From: an uncultured Candidatus Rokubacteria bacterium
GTDB taxonomy: Bacteria > Methylomirabilota > Methylomirabilia > Rokubacteriales > CSP1-6
Length of the DNA: 64,000 nt
Reading direction: 5' to 3'
Assembly: GCA_963743355.1 (NCBI GenBank)
Contig: CAVUPM010000001.1
Coordinates: 1,510,451-1,574,450, forward strand
This document shows positions 8,771 to 57,372 of the stretch, piece by piece (position 1 is the first letter of the stretch; every line of letters starts with the position of its first letter). A model generated the notes under the pieces. That model saw nothing but the letters and a program-made list of their open reading frames with translations. It was not told the origin of the DNA and ran no database searches. The position numbers were made by a program, and so were the translations under genes.

Positions 8771-9314
8771 ATGTCTCGCATCGGCAAGAAACCGATTCCG
8801 ATCCCCCCGGGCGTCAAGGTCCAGCTCGACGGCCTGACCGTCCGCGCCGAGGGCCCCAAGGGCAAGCTGAGCCAGCTGGTGCCCGCCGGGCTGACGCCCA
8901 GGGTCGCCGACGGCACCCTCGTCATCGAGCGCAGCGGCGAGGACCGCCGCGCGCGCGCGCTGCACGGCCTGGCCCGCGCGCTGGTGGCCAACATGGTGAC
9001 CGGCGTCAAGGACGGCTTCGAGCGCAAGCTGGAGATCGTCGGCATCGGCTACCGGGCCCAGATGCAGGGCAAGAGCATCCAGCTGGCCCTCGGCTACTCG
9101 CACCCGGTGCTGTTCCCGCTGCCCGACGGCGTGACGGCCGAGATCGACAGGCAGACGGCCATCACCTTGCGAGGTCGCCGACAAGGCGGTGCTCGGCGAG
9201 ACCGCCGCCAAGCTGCGGTCGCTGCGGAAGCCCGACCCCTACAAGGGCAAGGGCATTCGCTACGCGGGCGAAACGGTGCGCCGCAAGGTCGGCAAGAAGG
9301 CGGGCGCGAAATGA
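8771..9314 (+). CDS. rplF: 50S ribosomal protein L6. A 1-nt frameshift near 9170 disrupts the reading frame.
   Basis: ORF 8771.. reads the L6 N-terminus ([11 protein letters not shown]). After ...AITL the alternate frame gives [34 protein letters not shown]...KAGAK*. The stop overlaps the rplR ATG at 9311. Confidence 0.85.
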
Positions 9315-9676
9315 TCATCAAGGACAAGCGGGGGCCGCGCGACAAGCGGCATCACCGCCTGCGGCGCTGGGTTCGAGGCACGGCGGCCCGGCCTCGTCTG
9401 GCGGTGTTCCGCAGCCTCAACCACATCTACGCCCAGATCGTCGACGACGAGACCGGACGCACACTGGTCGCCGCCGACAGTCGCAGCAAGGAGTTCCGGA
9501 GCGGCCAGCCACGAGGTGGCAACGTGGCCGCCGCCAAGGCGGTGGGCGAGCTGCTGGCCCAGCGGGCCAAGGCCGCGGGCCTCGAGCGCATCGTGTTCGA
9601 TCGCGGCGGGTACAAGTACCATGGGCGCGTCAAGGCGCTCGCGGATGGCGCGCGGGCCGGCGGCCTCGTGTTCTAG
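9311..9676 (+). CDS. rplR: 50S ribosomal protein L18
   Basis: 121 aa from the internal ATG ([19 protein letters not shown]...[16 protein letters not shown]). Confidence 0.92.
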
Positions 9677-9827
9677 CCGGGCCGATGAAAATGGCCCATC
9701 TGCGTCGTTCGATCGGAGGGGGCCTCGGCGGCCCCCTCCGACGCCTCCCCCCGGGAGGCGCGGGCAAAGCCCGCGCTCGAAATGGTGGGGCAGCGCTTGG
9801 CGACCGGGGCCATTTTCATCGGCCCTA
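9677..9827. repeat. Structured palindromic intergenic element. A 19-bp perfect outer inverted repeat (GGGCCGATGAAAATGGCCC / GGGCCATTTTCATCGGCCC) encloses three GC hairpins. The same 22-nt core, GCGCGGGCAAAGCCCGCGCTCG, also occurs at 28351-28372.
   Basis: Direct reading. Outer arms at 9679-9697 and 9807-9825. Inner hairpins are GGAGGGGGCC/GGCCCCCTCC (9715-9739), CGCCTCCC/GGGAGGCG (9742-9760) and GCGCGGGC/GCCCGCGC (9758-9776). It lies in a 232-nt rplR-rpsE spacer that is normally about 10-20 nt. Confidence 0.6.
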
Positions 9828-9908
9828 CGCGCGAGGCAACGGGACCGGGACGAGGCGCGAGGTGACGGGACTGATGGTTCGATGATGGACGGGAACAGGA
9901 GAAACTGA

Positions 9909-10446
9909 GTGGCGGAAGCGAAGATCGATCCCAGCGTGCTGGAATTGAATGATCGGGTCGTCTCCATCAACCGGGTGGCCAAGGTCGTGAAGGGCGGACG
10001 GCGGTTCTCGTTCACCGCGTTGGTCGTGGTGGGCGACGGCCGTGGTCACGTCGGTGTCGGGCTTGGCAAGGCCCACGAGGTGCCGGAGGCGATCCGCAAG
10101 GCGGTCGAGCACGCGAAGAAGGACCTCATCTTCGTCCCGCTCAAGGACACGACGATCCCCTGCGAGATCACCGGTCACTTCGGTGCCGGCCGGGTCTTCC
10201 TCAAGCCGGCCGTGCAGGGCACGGGGGTCATCGCGGGCGGCGCGGTGCGTCCCGTGCTGGAGGCGGCCGGCGTGCAGGACATCCTGACCAAGACGCTGGG
10301 GTCGAACAATCCCGCACAACGTCCTCAAGGCCACCATCGACGCGCTCCGGCGGATCAAGCGACTGCAAGATCTGCACGCGGCGCGGCGGCGCGGCGGCGA
10401 CGGCAATCTGGCAGAGGAGACGGTCGGTGCCAAGCAAGAAGCTTAA
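9909..10446 (+). CDS. rpsE: 30S ribosomal protein S5. A 1-nt frameshift near 10312 disrupts the reading frame.
   Basis: GTG start with an [30 protein letters not shown]5 domain. After TKTLGSNNP the alternate frame continues [20 protein letters not shown]...VGAKQEA*. Confidence 0.85.
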
Positions 10447-10615
10447 GCTCACGCTGGTCAAGAGCATCATCGGTCTCAGCCCCAAGCAGGAGGGCACCGT
10501 CAAGGCCCTCGGCCTGCGGCGGATGTGGCAGCAGGTGAGCCACGACGACACCCCGATGATCCGCGGCATGATCGCCAAGGTGCCGCACGTCCTGCAGGTG
10601 ACCCATGAGGCTTGA
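10427..10615 (+). CDS. rpmD: 50S ribosomal protein L30
   Basis: 62 aa. [29 protein letters not shown]. Confidence 0.92.
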
Positions 10616-27246: not shown

Positions 27247-27297
27247 AATCCCGATCGTCATCGAGTAAAAACCACGTATTTACTGGTGTTTACCGCT

Positions 27298-27313
27298 TGG
27301 CACGGGCGACGCA
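27298..27313 (+). promoter_or_regulatory. candidate sigma54 (-24/-12) promoter TGGCACG-N4-ACGCA
   Basis: Exact TGGCACG at -24. The GC at -12 has canonical spacing (consensus TGGCACG-N4-TTGCW). Immediately downstream of a sigma54 activator gene and preceded by an AT-rich patch (GTATTTACTGGTGTTTAC). Confidence 0.5.
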
Positions 27314-27326
27314 ATCACCGCCGCCC

Positions 27327-28268
27327 ATGCTTGATACTGAGATCCCTCAGACGCAGCTGAGCTCGAAGCTGGAAGTGGCGATCGGCGTGAGTGTTGACCC
27401 TAACCCGGACGCGGCGATCGCGGAAGCGGCCGGTCTCGCCGGCCGTCGGCTCGGCAGCGCCAATCCCGACTTCGCGCTGGTGGTGACGGCGGGTTCGGTG
27501 GCGCGCGATGCCGTGGGCACGCTGCGCGAGGTTCTCGGACAGATTTCCGTGGCGGGAGGTGCCGCCACTGCGCTTCTCACGGATCACGGCCTCTCGAAGG
27601 AAGGCGCGCTCGTCGTCTGCGTGGCCAACGCGGACGGCGCCGCCAGCGGGGTGGCCGCCACTGCCGGTCGCAATCTGTGCGAGGCCGGACAGGCGGCGGC
27701 GCGTCTCGTGTTGGCGGGCTGGCCCTTCCGCGCTCGATATCCGCGCGGGCTGGCGTTCGCCTTCGCGCGTCCGGACGGCGGTGACGCCGCCCAGACGTTC
27801 CTCGCCGCCTGGCGGGACTTCATGGGGCCTAAGATGCGGACCGTCTGCACGGTGCTTGGCGGCGCCGCAGCGTACGGGCGCGGGGCTCCGCAGCCCCTGG
27901 CCAGCGTCGCGTGCGTCGAGGCGCCCTACGCCTCCGGTATCGGCTACACCGATGCGTCACCGACCGACGGCGTGACCCCGACCCGGGAGACGCTGGTCCA
28001 CGGCGCCGCCGACGCCATGCTCACCGCGGTGAAGCGCCTCGAGGGGCGCCCGGCGCGGCTGGTGCTGGTGATGGAGAGCGCCGCGCGCCATCGCATGCTG
28101 GGCACGGCGGTGGCCGAGGAGTGGGCGGCGATGCGCGGTGTGCTCGAGGATCGCACCCCGTGCGTTGGTTGGATCGGCGAGCACGTGGCCGCCTACGGCC
28201 GCGGCGTGCAGCCGACCGGCGCCCCGGGCGCGCTGGTGGTCGTGACACTCGGAGACGCACCGCGCTGA
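27327..28268 (+). CDS. hypothetical protein, Ala/Gly-rich, about 314 aa. Possibly a FIST-like sensor (speculative). Predicted sigma54-dependent.
   Basis: ORF 27297..28268. The start was moved to the ATG at 27327 because the predicted promoter overlaps the first 10 codons. A GTG near 27372 is an alternative start. No recognisable catalytic motifs. Confidence 0.5.
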   Translation: MLDTEIPQTQLSSKLEVAIGVSVDPNPDAAIAEAAGLAGRRLGSANPDFALVVTAGSVARDAVGTLREVLGQISVAGGAATALLTDHGLSKEGALVVCVANADGAASGVAATAGRNLCEAGQAAARLVLAGWPFRARYPRGLAFAFARPDGGDAAQTFLAAWRDFMGPKMRTVCTVLGGAAAYGRGAPQPLASVACVEAPYASGIGYTDASPTDGVTPTRETLVHGAADAMLTAVKRLEGRPARLVLVMESAARHRMLGTAVAEEWAAMRGVLEDRTPCVGWIGEHVAAYGRGVQPTGAPGALVVVTLGDAPR

Positions 28269-28272
28269 GCTC

Positions 28273-28294
28273 GAGGGGGGCATCGCCCCCCTTC
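28273..28294. terminator. GC hairpin GGGGGGC-ATC-GCCCCCC between convergent genes (bidirectional terminator candidate, no U-tract)
   Basis: Direct reading. Followed by further short palindromes (CGACG-GT-CGTCG, GCGCGCC-TGGC-GGCGCGC) and the REP-like core at 28351-28372. Confidence 0.45.
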
Positions 28295-28350
28295 GACGGT
28301 CGTCGCGCGCCTGGCGGCGCGCTCCTCCCTGCTCCCCCCAGATTCGGATT

Positions 28351-28372
28351 GCGCGGGCAAAGCCCGCGCTCG
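28351..28372. repeat. Second copy of the palindromic core GCGCGGGCAAAGCCCGCGCTCG (identical to 9758-9779)
   Basis: Exact 22/22 match. Also preceded by a CTCCCCCC run, as in copy 1. Confidence 0.6.
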
Positions 28373-28448
28373 GAGCGCGCGACTCCCCGAGAGGTTGTGC
28401 CTGCCCTGCGGTGAACGATCAGTCGTGGCCGTGAGCTTCCAGGTCGGA

Positions 28449-30056
28449 TCAGCGGGTGACGTAGCCCGCCAGGAGGTCGCGGGCGATCAGCTCCGGGTCG
28501 CGGTCGGTGGGGGGGCCGTAGCCGCCGCCGCCGGGGAGGTGGATCTCGACCAGGGAGTCGGGGGAGATCACCTGTTCGGCTTTGGGGTTGGGGGGTTGGA
28601 CGCCGTCGATCAGGACCTCGCCCTTGGCTCCGGCGTGACCGCCGCGGAAGCCGGCGGCCGGCTCGACGGTGCGATCGCACAGGACCGAGCAGACGAACGA
28701 CTCGCGCGTGTGCATACGGAACGCGATCGTCTGGCCGAGCCCGCCCCGGTATTTCCCGGCGCCGCCCGAGTCGTCGCGGAGCGCCTTGCGTTCCACCAGC
28801 ATCGGCGAGAGGTTCTCGATCACCTCGACCGGCGTGCCGAGCACACCCGAGGGGAAGGCCGTGGCGGACAGCCCGTCCTTCACGGCGCGCGCGCCGGTTC
28901 CGCCCGACGAGAAGAAAATGTGCGTGAACGGCCGGCCCTCGGCGTCCTTGCCGGAAACCTGCACGCCCCAGATGTTGGCGGAGCCCTCGGCCATGACGCG
29001 CTCGGGCAGCGCCTGGCCGAGCGCGCCGGCGATGACGTGCGGCAGGAAGTGGCCGATGACGTGGCGCGCGGCCACCGGCGCCGGGCGCGTCACGTTGAGG
29101 ATCGACCCCTCCGGCGCGCTGATGCGGATCGGCCGGAACGCGCCCTCGTTGTTGGGCACGTCGGGGCTGATGATCACCTTCACGCCGTACGTCGTGTACG
29201 CCTCGGTGTAGTTCATCACCACGTTGACGCCGCGGCGGCTGGCCGGCGAGGAGCCGGCGTAGTCGATCAGGAGATCGTCGCCCTGCACCTGGCAGCGCAC
29301 CCGGATCGTGATCGGCTCGCCGAAGCCGTCGGAGGTGATCGCGTGCTCGTACACGCCGGGGCGGAGCGCGCGGATCGCCTCCCGCATGGCGCGCTCGGTG
29401 CGGCCGATGATCTCGTCGGCCAGCGGCTCCAGGTGCTCCAGGCCGAACTCGTCCATGAACTCGAGCAGCCGCTCGCCGCCCACGGCGCCACCGGCGATCT
29501 GGGCGTGGAAGTCGCCGAGCACCATCTCGGGCAGCCGCGTATTCTCCCGGATCATCGCCACCAGCGTCTCGTTGGGGCGCCCCGCCTCGTAGAGCTTGAG
29601 GATCGGGATCTGCAGCCCTTCCTCGTACACCTCGCGCGCCTCGGCCGACAGCACGTGGCCGCCGATGTCGGCGGTGTGGCAGGTGGAGGCGAAGAACGCC
29701 ACGCAGCGGTCGCTCCGGAAGATCGGCGAGCAGATGGTGACGTCGTTGAGATGGCCGGAGGTCTTCCAGGGATCGTTGGTGATCAGCACGTCGCCCGGGG
29801 CCAGGCGCTCGGGCGGGTAGACCGCCAGGAAGTGCTTCATCGCCAGCGCCATCGAGTTGATGTGACCGGGCGTGCCGGTCACGGCCTGGGCCACCATGTA
29901 GCCGCGGCTGTCGAAGACGCCGGCCGACAGGTCTCCGGCCTCGCGCACGATCGAGGTGAACGACGTGCGCTGCAGCGCCGCTGCCTGCTCGTTGACGACG
30001 CCGATCAGGCGGTTCCAGCAGATCTCGAGCGTGACCGGATCGAGGATCGTGCTCAT
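28449..30056 (-). CDS. hyuB: hydantoinase B / 5-oxoprolinase subunit (HyuB family)
   Basis: 535 aa from MSTILDPVTLEICWNRL. Hydantoinase_B family conservation. ATG overlaps the hyuA stop (ATGA). The upstream 205 codons of the ORF are Arg-rich junk. Confidence 0.88.
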   Translation of the reverse strand: MSTILDPVTLEICWNRLIGVVNEQAAALQRTSFTSIVREAGDLSAGVFDSRGYMVAQAVTGTPGHINSMALAMKHFLAVYPPERLAPGDVLITNDPWKTSGHLNDVTICSPIFRSDRCVAFFASTCHTADIGGHVLSAEAREVYEEGLQIPILKLYEAGRPNETLVAMIRENTRLPEMVLGDFHAQIAGGAVGGERLLEFMDEFGLEHLEPLADEIIGRTERAMREAIRALRPGVYEHAITSDGFGEPITIRVRCQVQGDDLLIDYAGSSPASRRGVNVVMNYTEAYTTYGVKVIISPDVPNNEGAFRPIRISAPEGSILNVTRPAPVAARHVIGHFLPHVIAGALGQALPERVMAEGSANIWGVQVSGKDAEGRPFTHIFFSSGGTGARAVKDGLSATAFPSGVLGTPVEVIENLSPMLVERKALRDDSGGAGKYRGGLGQTIAFRMHTRESFVCSVLCDRTVEPAAGFRGGHAGAKGEVLIDGVQPPNPKAEQVISPDSLVEIHLPGGGGYGPPTDRDPELIARDLLAGYVTR

Positions 30057-32134
30057 GGCATCGTCACCACGATCGTCAGGCCGTCGTCGACGCGGCCGCG
30101 GGCGCCGGGGCCGATGACGGCGGTCGACTCGCGCTCCTCGACGATCGCGGGCCCGTCGAACGTGACGCCGGGCCCGAGCGCGTAGCGGTCGTAGACCGGC
30201 GTCTCCACCCAGCCCGAGGCCTCGGCGAACCACGCGCGACGTCTCGTCTTCAGCGCGGCGCCGGACGATCGCCCGGCGCCACCGGCGCCGCCGAACGCGA
30301 GCGGCGGTGGCGGTCCCGACACTGTTACCCGCCAGTTGAGCGCCTCGATGGGAACGCCCTGCGGCAGGCGATGGTAGAGCGCGCGGTAGGCCTCCTCGAA
30401 CGACGCGGTGATCGCCGGCAGGCTGGCCGGTGACAGCAGTCGGGCCGGGATCGGCGCCTCGACCTCGTGGCCCTGGCCGACGTAGCGCATCTCGGCGATG
30501 CGCGACACCCGCGCCGCGTCGGGCGCGACGCCGGCCCGGATCAGCAGCGCGCGGCCCTCGTTCTCCATCTCGGCGAAGAGCCGATTGAGCACGTCCCAGT
30601 CGGCGTGGTCCAGGCGCGCGCGGCCCGTCCGCACGAAGTCGAACGCCAACGGGGCAGCCAGCAGCCCCCACGCCGACATCGCGCCGGCGCCGAAGGGCAG
30701 GAGGATCCGCGGCACCCTCAGGATTCGCGCGACCTGCCAGCAGTGCACGGGGCCGGCGCCGCCGAACGCAAAGAGCGGATAGGCGCGCAGGTCGCGGCCA
30801 CGTTCGATCCCGTGGATCCGCGCCGCGGCCGCCATGCTCTCGTTGACCACGCGGTGGATGCCCCAGGCCGCCGCCGTCGGATCGAGACGCAATGGGCCCG
30901 CGACGTGCTCGCTCACCGCGTGCTCGGCCGCACCGCGGTCCAGGCGCATGCGGCCGCCGAGAAAGAACTCGGCGTCGAGGTAGCCGAGCAGCAGGTCGGC
31001 GTCGGTCACGGTCGGCTGGCGGCCGCCCAGATTGTAGCAGGCGGGGCCGGGGTCGGCGCCCGCGCTGTCGGGCCCGACCTTGAGCAGGCCCATGCGGTCC
31101 ACCCGCGCGATGGAGCCGCCGCCGGCGCCGATCTCGATCATTTCGATGACGGGCACGCGGATGGGCAGCCCCGAGCCCTTCTTGAACCGGTCGGCGCGCG
31201 CGACCTCGAACTCACGGGCCACGAGCGGCGCCCCACCGTCGATCACGCACGCCTTCGCGGTCGTGCCGCCCATGTCGAACGACAGCATGCGTGAGTCCCC
31301 GCGCTCGCGCGCGGCCTGGGCCGCGGCCAGCGCGCCGGCGGCCGGGCCCGACTCCACCAGGCGGATCGGCAGCCGGCGCGCCAGCGGCGGCAGCGCGATG
31401 CCGCCGGAGGACTGCATGACGTAGAGCTGGCCGGGCACGCCGAGACCGCCCAGCCGCCGCTCGAGATCCTCGATGTAGCGGGCCATCAGCGGCACCACGT
31501 ACACGTTGGCGGTGGTCGTCGACGTGCGTTCGTACTCGCGGATCTCCGGCACGACGTCGGAGGAGCAGGAGACGGCCAGGTGTGGCGCCGCCTCGCGCAC
31601 CAGCTCGGCCAGCCGGCGCTCGTGGGCGGGATTCAGGTAGGCGTGCAGCAGGCAGATGGCCAGCGCCTCGACGCCGGCGTCGACGAGCTCGCCGATCACC
31701 CGCCGGGCCGCCACCTCGTCGAGCGGACGCAGCACCGAGCCGTCGGGTAACAGCCGCTCCGGCACCTCCCGCCGCAAGTGACGCGGCACCAGCGGGGCCG
31801 GGGGGTCGATCAGCAGATCGTACATGTCGTAGCGACCCTCGCGCTGGATCTCGAGCACGTCGCGGAACCCCGCGGTGGTCAGCAGGGCGGTGCGCGCGCC
31901 CTTGCGCTCGATGAGCGCGTTCGTGGCCAGCGTCGTGCCGTGCACGACGGCGCGGACGCGGGCGGGGTCGACGCCGGCCTCGTCGAGGAGCGACTGCACG
32001 CCCTGCTCGACGCCGAGGGCGGGGTCCTTGGCCGTGGTGAGGACCTTGCCGACGCGGAGCGCGCCGGTACCCTCGTCGATCACGACGAGATCGGTGAACG
32101 TGCCACCGATGTCCACACCGACGCGCGCCGACAT
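30053..32134 (-). CDS. hyuA: hydantoinase A / N-methylhydantoinase A (ATP-hydrolysing)
   Basis: 693 aa. VGVDIGGTFTD N-terminal ASKHA motif and Hydantoinase_A domain. Confidence 0.9.
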   Translation of the reverse strand: MSARVGVDIGGTFTDLVVIDEGTGALRVGKVLTTAKDPALGVEQGVQSLLDEAGVDPARVRAVVHGTTLATNALIERKGARTALLTTAGFRDVLEIQREGRYDMYDLLIDPPAPLVPRHLRREVPERLLPDGSVLRPLDEVAARRVIGELVDAGVEALAICLLHAYLNPAHERRLAELVREAAPHLAVSCSSDVVPEIREYERTSTTTANVYVVPLMARYIEDLERRLGGLGVPGQLYVMQSSGGIALPPLARRLPIRLVESGPAAGALAAAQAARERGDSRMLSFDMGGTTAKACVIDGGAPLVAREFEVARADRFKKGSGLPIRVPVIEMIEIGAGGGSIARVDRMGLLKVGPDSAGADPGPACYNLGGRQPTVTDADLLLGYLDAEFFLGGRMRLDRGAAEHAVSEHVAGPLRLDPTAAAWGIHRVVNESMAAAARIHGIERGRDLRAYPLFAFGGAGPVHCWQVARILRVPRILLPFGAGAMSAWGLLAAPLAFDFVRTGRARLDHADWDVLNRLFAEMENEGRALLIRAGVAPDAARVSRIAEMRYVGQGHEVEAPIPARLLSPASLPAITASFEEAYRALYHRLPQGVPIEALNWRVTVSGPPPPLAFGGAGGAGRSSGAALKTRRRAWFAEASGWVETPVYDRYALGPGVTFDGPAIVEERESTAVIGPGARGRVDDGLTIVVTMP

Positions 32135-53522: not shown

Positions 53523-53555
53523 TTGATAGGGGGGAGCGATCGCCGCTCCCCCCTA
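53523..53555. terminator. 12-bp-stem GC hairpin TAGGGGGGAGCG-ATCG-CGCTCCCCCCTA downstream of livF
   Basis: Direct reading. Confidence 0.4.
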
Positions 53556-57296: not shown

Positions 57297-57372
57297 GTGA
57301 GCGAGGTGGGGGGCACGGTCCGCCGCGACCTTGCCGCGGGGAGCGCCAGACCCTGCCCCCCACCTCGCTCAC
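57297..57372. promoter_or_regulatory. 19-bp perfect inverted repeat (GTGAGCGAGGTGGGGGGCA / TGCCCCCCACCTCGCTCAC) with a 38-nt loop, between livK and livH
   Basis: Direct reading. Candidate intra-operon attenuator or mRNA-stabilising stem-loop. Confidence 0.4.

Follow-up and report, generated by a model that had tools for sequence, protein, structure and literature searches.

Ribosomal protein operons are among the most compact and conserved of bacterial gene arrays. The BIME and ERIC/IRU sequences of the enterobacteria are intercistronic palindromic mosaics that are transcribed within operons and vary in size through insertions and deletions at fixed internal sites, and the Correia elements of Neisseria, which are miniature inverted-repeat transposable elements (MITEs), are non-coding and ~100–150 bp long, have terminal inverted repeats, and are co-transcribed, with stems that RNase III can target. 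REPINs are made of short palindromes in inverted orientation, with spacers that are variable yet hairpin-forming, and symmetric excision leaves singlets behind (PMC3337134). For the mycobacterial MIRUs a coupling strategy has been proposed that would minimize the cost of insertion (PMC12548453). Here we describe a 147 nt palindromic element between rplR and rpsE, the genes for ribosomal proteins L18 and S5, in the spc operon of an uncultured Candidatus Rokubacteria bacterium (contig CAVUPM010000001.1; the window is the whole 64,000 nt stretch from 1,510,451 to 1,574,450 of the forward strand, and coordinates below are those of the window). With confidence a little above even, we read it as an undescribed nested mosaic of exchangeable non-coding palindromic modules, resembling REPINs, BIMEs and MITEs, in a hypervariable landing pad after the rplR stop codon, and probably as a passenger that the host tolerates and not as a regulator. 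Our search of the literature on palindromic repeats in Rokubacteria, or on REP sequences in ribosomal protein operons, found nothing specific.

The spacer extends from the rplR stop codon (TAG, 9674–9676) to the rpsE GTG at 9909 and is 232 nt long, as reported in the first-pass annotation of this DNA, which also placed the element at the rplR stop; it begins 2 nt beyond the TAG. The outer part, module A, is an inverted repeat of GGGCCGATGAAAATGGCCC (9679–9697, forward strand) and its exact reverse complement GGGCCATTTTCATCGGCCC (9807–9825, forward strand). All 19 of 19 positions pair, bearing out the perfect 19 bp repeat originally described, and 109 nt lie between the arms. A single arm forms a weak hairpin by itself (GGGCC-N9-GGCCC) and the paired arms form a long stem. 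The arms are AT-rich patches (GATGAAAAT / ATTTTCATC) in a genome of ~70% GC, and the left arm contains an ATG (9685–9687) 8 nt past the L18 stop. Within the 64 kb there are only two sites matching the 19-mer with up to three mismatches, these being the two arms, with 0.03 expected. The left arm is in the same place in related contigs L080, L134, L139, L141, L144/145, L149–167 and L196, and there are variants of it in L174, L157 and L178. The right arm is a perfect complement in the window alone; in the relatives a G replaces the C of the window, giving a G.G mismatch at pair 9, and 17–18 of the 19 positions pair.

The space between the arms is a loop with recognizable ends. Its 5′ segment ATCTGCGTCGTT (9698–9709, forward strand) is conserved and is common to the relatives with elements of 121 or 122 nt, and its 3′ segment GGCAGCGCTTGGCGACCG (9789–9806, forward strand) aligns with GGCGGCGCCTAGCATCT of all other size classes; all forms have ATC(TGCGTCGTT) as the 5′ end of the loop and GGCGGCGCCTAGCATCT as its 3′ end, from which the 3′ end in the window has diverged. 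The content of the loop differs by form. It is empty in a 58 nt form, holds module B in the 121/122 nt form, and holds module C in the window, with 20, 83–84 and 109 nt between the arms, respectively, and each form folds as one rod. Module B is an imperfect hairpin of ~54–63 nt with the tip GGCGTATG-CGG-CATACGCC. Module C (9713–9782, forward strand; recognized by blastn and nhmmer matches to other copies) is a unit of three GC hairpins that are where the first reading of the sequence had put them: H1 (9713–9724/9730–9741, 12 bp), H2 (9742–9749/9753–9760, 8 bp) and H3 (9758–9765/9769–9776, 8 bp), followed by a TCGAA tail (9777–9781). H2 and H3 overlap by 3 nt, so they cannot both form fully. 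What had been taken for a single element is thus a nest of at least two independent modules.

We compared the rplR-rpsE junction in about 60 related contigs and catalogued their spacers. The L18 homologues are at most 95% identical to that of the window and come from soil metagenomes; those with names are Candidatus Rokuibacteriota, and the one genome match is a metagenome-assembled genome (MAG) of Candidatus Methylomirabilota. Including the window, the spacers are 11, 52, 76, 91, 114, 169, 173, 183, 203, 215, 225 and 232 nt long. The 11 nt spacer, which consists of GGAGAGACTGA only, is found in three sets of contigs (L001–006, P0004; L168–173 and L175–177, P0030; L186–195, P0064), in accord with the initial statement that this junction is normally a few nucleotides long. 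The nearest L18 relatives of the window (L007–011, 94–95% identical in amino acid sequence) have a 52 nt spacer made of an older sequence, module D, without the element, and relative to these close relatives the element is therefore an insertion, as first proposed. Six contigs (L179–184) have 76 nt with one small hairpin in which the motif CCGATGAA is kept, and one (L185) has 91 nt with module C and no arms. The remaining forms have arms: with a 20 nt loop in the 114 nt spacers of the L139 class, with module B in spacers of 169–225 nt (L144/145, L141, L196, L080/L149 and L134), as a variant pair with a variant module B in a spacer of 183 nt (L178), and with module C in the 232 nt spacer of the window. 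The short junction is the widespread form; long spacers are expansions specific to certain lineages, and every one of them is built directly 3′ of the L18 stop. Wherever module A is present it starts 2 nt past the stop codon and its orientation is constant.

The closest relative of the window in its framework is L196 (L18 92.6% identical), which shares the TAG-CC linker, both arms, the loop ends, a 26 nt tandem duplication and a short upstream open reading frame (ORF; both described below), and which holds module B exactly at the place of module C in the window. The same framework with a different module in it indicates that the interior has been swapped in the window lineage; the exact combination of modules A and C is found in the window alone. 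In L179–L184 a stub, GGGTCCGATGAATGGGACCAGGCC, occupies the exact place of the 147 nt element. It retains CCGATGAA and has its own 5 bp hairpin through a compensatory change of G-C to T-A, and it is either a remnant left after excision of the center or an ancestral single hairpin.

Module C is also present elsewhere. In general form it consists of H1 (TCGGAGGGGGCC-loop-GGCCCCCTCCGA), a C-rich linker, H3 (GCG(CG/GC)GGC-AAA-GCC(CG/GC)CGC) and the TCGAA tail, and it has matches at L185 1208–1280, L149 12909–12983, L150 8262–8336 and, in the window, 28271–28375 (nhmmer E-values of 1e-11 to 1e-20). The second copy in the window is on the forward strand, 2 nt past the stop of an ORF with no Pfam match (27297–28268, forward strand) and ~75 nt past the 3′ terminus of a gene for hydantoinase B (28449–30671, reverse strand), and so lies between convergent genes. 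An additional hairpin, GCGCGCC-TGG-CGGCGCGC, is inserted in this copy, which contains the identical 19-mer GCGCGGGCAAAGCCCGCGC. In L149 and L150 module C fills the spacer between rpmJ and rpsM, starting 2 nt past the L36 stop, and this junction is 94 nt in these two contigs as against 9–13 nt in the window, L158/159 and L186–194. The rpmJ-rpsM junction is thus a second one in a ribosomal operon at which module C is present in some relatives and absent from others. In L185 it directly follows the L18 stop at rplR-rpsE. All copies are oriented as the gene upstream. With two copies in 64 kb and three loci, module C suggests a REP-like dispersed palindrome better than the arms do, and to this extent the original proposal of a REP-type insertion is retained: the three-hairpin core is repeated at other intergenic sites. 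The MITE part of that proposal is not supported, as the arms were found at a single locus and have no target-site duplication. Two further intergenic hairpins in the window, at 53527–53555 (a perfect 12 bp stem, TAGGGGGGAGCG/CGCTCCCCCCTA) and 57297–57372 (30 nt arms that are 90% complementary), have G6/C6 cores and lie between genes on the same strand. We considered them as members of the module C family and rejected them, as nhmmer does not detect them; they may belong to a wider group of intercistronic GC-rich hairpins that this genome has.

Comparison of the element with its hosts provides evidence for exchange. The A+B element is identical at 117–121 of 122 positions across hosts in which the L18 DNA is 79–87% identical and third codon positions are 60–73% identical. 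Identity collapses immediately outside of the arms: neither the stop codon nor the 2 nt linker is constant, and the spacer downstream cannot be aligned. Departures from the host relationships are seen in two instances. One is L149 and L157, whose L18 genes are 99% identical and whose arm alleles differ (AAAATGGCCC, with TGGC, in one and AAAACAGGCC, with CAGG, in the other); the CAGG allele recurs in L178, where the host gene is only 85% identical. The other is L158, with the short form and canonical arms, and L178, with the long form and variant arms, in hosts that are 93% identical. Presence of the element also differs between close relatives, as in L174, which has it and encodes an L18 protein identical to that of L168–173 and L175–177, in which the rplF+rplR DNA is 93–94% identical and the spacer is 11 nt. 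The unpaired loop segments are conserved to the same degree as the stems. Because the loops are as conserved as the stems and the interior can be lost or replaced, recent exchange of a discrete unit of DNA appears, from these alignments, to account for the high identity better than purifying selection over the long term does.

The folding check proposed at the outset gave a clear result, with minimum free energies (MFEs) far below those of shuffled controls (z of about -7 to -8). The RNA of 9670–9835 has an MFE of -109.4 kcal/mol, compared to -79.4 ± 4.5 kcal/mol for dinucleotide shuffles (z = -6.7; none of 200 shuffles was as good), and the 147 nt element by itself has a z of -8.2. The element is predicted to form a long rod that branches at its tip and not the cloverleaf first suggested, and all forms of the element among the relatives fold as one rod (z of -5 to -8). 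In the centroid structure of the element in its context, the rpsE Shine-Dalgarno (SD) sequence (AGGAG, 9897–9901) is unpaired. The opposite strand of 9670–9835 folds equally well (z = -7.2), and the fold therefore gives no pointer to a sense RNA.

Pairing is maintained through several compensatory changes. Relative to the canonical arms, those of L178 have three compensatory double substitutions, and the 19 stem pairs are 95.6% paired overall. H3 of module C has two compensatory pairs, both CG to GC, the tip of module B in L144/145 has a change of T-A to C-G, and in module B of L178 GTTCC/GGAAC is replaced by GGGC/GCCC (changes of TT/AA to GG/CC). Template switching during quasipalindrome mutagenesis can correct palindromes at the level of DNA.

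Our preferred explanation for these patterns is that the modules would have spread, or been exchanged, as DNA between Rokubacteria-type strains, either by a trans-acting enzyme that recognizes hairpins, as with the REPIN/RAYT or IS200/IS605-type systems, or by short-tract recombination between co-occurring strains. The element would then fold up in the transcript as a self-contained rod, with the Shine-Dalgarno sequence of rpsE left free, and the insertion would be tolerated within an essential polycistron. The ATG in the arm, 8 nt past the L18 stop, could in addition open a relay of ORFs to a TGA that abuts the rpsE GTG, such that ribosomes would melt the hairpin and stay coupled, as has been put forward for the MIRUs. 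In a narrower version, which we think unlikely, module A would be a non-coding, single-site 'safe-harbour' palindrome that homes to the rplR stop and moves, or is exchanged, between lineages of Rokubacteria, with a loop for docking of modules B and C and its own start codon to keep rpsE coupled, unlike REPINs and MITEs, which are multi-copy.

The sequences downstream of the element bear on the relay. Module D (9826–9908, forward strand) is homologous to the 52 nt spacer of the element-free relatives and includes an SD-like GAGGTGA (9859–9865) and the rpsE SD. A 26 nt tandem duplication in this older spacer (9820–9845 and 9846–9871, 77% identical) is present in L196 and not in L179 or L007, and by this distribution it is a lineage marker and does not belong to the palindromic element. 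A mini upstream ORF (mini-uORF) at 9882–9908 reads ATG ATG GAC GGG AAC AGG AGA AAC TGA, with its TGA abutting the rpsE GTG. The pattern M(M)xxxRR(N/D), of 7–9 codons and containing the rpsE SD, is present in every spacer that has the 52 nt segment (L007–L011, L139, L178, L179, L080, L134 and L196), and its length varies only by multiples of three. In the 52 nt spacers a still shorter ORF overlaps the start of the mini-uORF (TGATG / ATGA). A candidate bridging ORF of 66 codons (9685–9885, forward strand) begins in the left arm and spans the whole element; its TGA (9883–9885) overlaps the ATGATG of the mini-uORF, its frame in the window is uncertain, and it is not a conserved protein. In L141, L144/145, L080/L149 and L196 the ORF from the left arm is in frame to a terminal stop that abuts rpsE, through downstream segments of 45–91 nt that are in part unrelated. 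Among the 14 unique spacers of 52 nt or more, nine have an unbroken relay, with gaps of no more than 12 nt, as do seven of the eight that are 169 nt or more. Such a relay is found in 3–9% of dinucleotide shuffles of the long spacers (3–26% over all spacers) and in none of the reverse complements. As judged from these sequences, a relay from the L18 stop to the rpsE start is suggestive, at roughly the 0.01 level.

Several observations weigh against the interpretation of the element as a mobile or exchangeable mosaic. Comparison of filled and empty sites shows a target-site duplication for neither module A nor module C, and there is no constant flanking target, the left flank of module A being TA(A/G)/TGA + NC and its right flank T(A/C/G)(C/G). 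No transposase was identified in the 64 kb window, a genome-wide search not being possible. The arms occur at no site other than rplR-rpsE in a search of 396 kb of related DNA allowing four mismatches, and all six two-arm loci found in a scan of metagenomes with the exact 19-mer are at this junction. Module C is known from only three loci, with two copies in the 64 kb window, and no copies beyond the five reported were found by nhmmer --max in the same 396 kb. The very high identity of the element could in principle represent strong purifying selection and not transfer, and the compensatory changes are no proof of selection on RNA, since template-switch correction can yield them. The relay statistics are only suggestive because the lineages are related, and the absence of the relay from the short form (the L139 class), L178 and L185 indicates that it is not indispensable. 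As to the scans themselves, absence in the metagenome scan is weaker evidence than it appears, since the scanned collection is a subset: protein look-ups gave many more JGI contigs with the same 19-mer (e.g. L149–L167). A 17-mer scan of genome collections is likewise an incomplete census, and among the matches listed L080 is real (at rplR-rpsE) and the others are chance single-arm matches in unrelated taxa.

The most substantial alternative is that module A serves the spc operon transcript as a dedicated cis-acting RNA, in the form of an RNase III-type stem, as a decay barrier that sets the ratio of L18 to S5-L30-L15-SecY, or as a ribosomal protein site, with its interior a passenger. This would account for the fixed position and constant orientation in all carrier lineages, for the conservation of 31–38 of the 38 arm positions next to non-coding DNA that cannot be aligned, for the 19 bp stem preserved by three compensatory pairs, and for the retention of CCGAUGAA even in the 76 nt stub, with its own hairpin through a G-C to U-A change; the single-copy arms are also what a locus-specific function would predict. 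However, the element is dispensable, being absent from the nearest relatives of the window and from whole sub-lineages with 11 nt or 52 nt spacers, the arm alleles conflict with the host tree, and the loops are conserved like the stem, which fits a recent common origin better than a structural constraint. The equally good fold of the opposite strand also speaks against it, as does Rfam, for which the window has no match that reaches the gathering threshold, the region of the element has hits at chance level only (E-values of 2.5 and 5.2) and five relatives have none, so that the Rfam check outlined in the first-pass annotation produced no family. We regard this alternative as unlikely. Since many close relatives lack the element and its interior is exchanged among them, a conserved RNA for autoregulation or processing, the functions first suggested, is unlikely to be essential, and the element may still have roles at the level of RNA such as in processing or stability. 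The idea that the arm core mimics 5S rRNA, loop E or a k-turn was rejected, there being a single G.G mismatch, no bulge, and no match to a 5S model. It is improbable to a greater degree that a translated short ORF beginning at ATGAAAATGG in the left arm, encoding a leader or bridging peptide, is the function and the palindrome secondary. The ATG is conserved 8 nt past the L18 stop, the frame runs to a stop abutting or overlapping rpsE in the four cases noted above in spite of their partly unrelated spacers, and four of five substitutions within the 121 nt class are synonymous; yet two of these are the two sides of one compensatory pair, and the changes added by L174 and L157 are mostly non-synonymous. 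Neither frame nor peptide is conserved, with 14 codons in another frame in the short form, frame-shifting indels in L178 (35 codons), and the right arm read in a different frame in the window, and the JGI and NCBI gene calls for the relatives' loci have no gene in the spacer. With frames that differ between the short form, the 121 nt form, L178 and the window, and with no Pfam match, we rejected the arm ORF as a small protein-coding gene and retain it solely as a putative relay for ribosomes.

Two other explanations carry still less weight. Strong GC hairpins directly after a stop codon, AT-rich arm cores in a GC-rich genome, and the terminator-like position of the second module C copy between convergent genes could point to a transcription signal, with either an intrinsic terminator (or attenuator) following rplR, or the arm cores serving in an internal promoter from which rpsE-rpmD-rplO-secY is transcribed. 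However, a scan of 9000–10600 on both strands for sigma-70-like promoters and for hairpins followed by a T-run, the only signal types covered, found neither, essential genes of the same operon lie downstream, and the relatives work with an 11 nt junction; we consider a transcription signal very improbable. It is hardly credible that error-prone assembly created the element as an artefact, for instance a palindromic chimera, a possibility raised by the A+C combination being seen in the window only and by the sequence quality of the neighbouring genes. rplR (9311–9676, forward strand) is identified by its translation and by its match to Pfam Ribosomal_L18p (E-value 4e-42), and rpsE (9909–10446, forward strand), with Pfam S5 N- and C-terminal domains and alignment to relatives, has its frame broken by a 1 nt insertion near 10311. 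Relative to several relatives there are single-base insertions in rplF (~9175), rpsE (~10311) and secY (~11978 and ~12009), with the effect that the ORF list fuses rplF to rplR, shifts the C-terminus of rpsE, and has the frames of essential genes disrupted. These are most likely assembly indel errors (~1 per kb) and not pseudogenes, and the frames within 9685–9908 are unreliable for this reason. The arms and framework, though, recur in the identical place in numerous independent assemblies from JGI, ENA and NCBI, module C recurs independently, and L196 reproduces the flanks of the window including the 26 nt duplication.

We therefore return to the passenger mosaic and how it compares with known systems. 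It is similar to the REP and REPIN sequences mobilized by RAYT in Pseudomonas and the Enterobacteria, in that the two inverted imperfect palindromes of module A make a single long hairpin, their variable spacer folds whatever its sequence and length, and the site is extragenic and, as is often the case with REPs, just past a stop codon; the L179 stub is consistent with a singlet left by symmetric excision. It differs in that REPINs number tens to hundreds per genome and the module A arms are at one locus, in that no RAYT gene was identified in the 64 kb window, and in the loss of the arm's own hairpin in L178. REPINs are also reported to be vertically inherited, whereas here the element is more similar between distant hosts than are their genes. 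A palindromic mosaic with size variants in intercistronic space resembles the BIME and ERIC sequences, although there is no sequence relationship, the host phylum differs, module C sits within the loop of module A, and the composite is in an essential ribosomal protein operon. The size and the 19 bp terminal inverted repeat (perfect in the window, 17–18 of 19 in the relatives) are those of a MITE, but module A fails the usual criteria for one, since no target-site duplication flanks it and its arms are not found elsewhere in the DNA searched, and no parent insertion sequence (IS) with matching ends is known.

The relay that joins the L18 stop to the rpsE start in most of the long variants is reminiscent of the MIRUs, although these are direct tandem repeats with units of 46–101 bp, and the element is palindromic with only a two-copy 26 nt tandem adjoining it; the relay here is also missing in some variants and statistically only suggestive. 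As a structured RNA in a ribosomal protein operon the element recalls the autoregulatory mRNAs, such as the S8 site of the E. coli spc operon and the leaders in Rfam, but it lacks an Rfam match and rplR-rpsE is not a known regulatory site, and its absence from close relatives argues that it is no conserved regulator.

The insert itself is genuine and its features are statistically robust, and no new regulatory system or new kind of system is demonstrated by these comparisons. One junction in an uncultured soil phylum appears to be a hot spot for insertion, nesting, swapping and loss of palindromic modules among strains with near-identical flanking genes, and the insert appears to avoid harm because it folds on itself, and possibly also because ribosomes translate through it. 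Should this be confirmed, the 11–232 nt spacers would be a natural series for relating intercistronic structure to translational coupling and ribosomal protein stoichiometry, and the junction is also a strain-level marker for these soil populations. For specialists, the unusual feature is that an essential junction of normally 11 nt hosts nested palindromes, and the relay idea is testable. The element has features that work like REP, REPIN and BIME-type DNA together with a MIRU-like coupling, is not a demonstrated member of any of these groups, and would, if confirmed, extend REP/REPIN/MIRU-type biology to the Rokubacteria.

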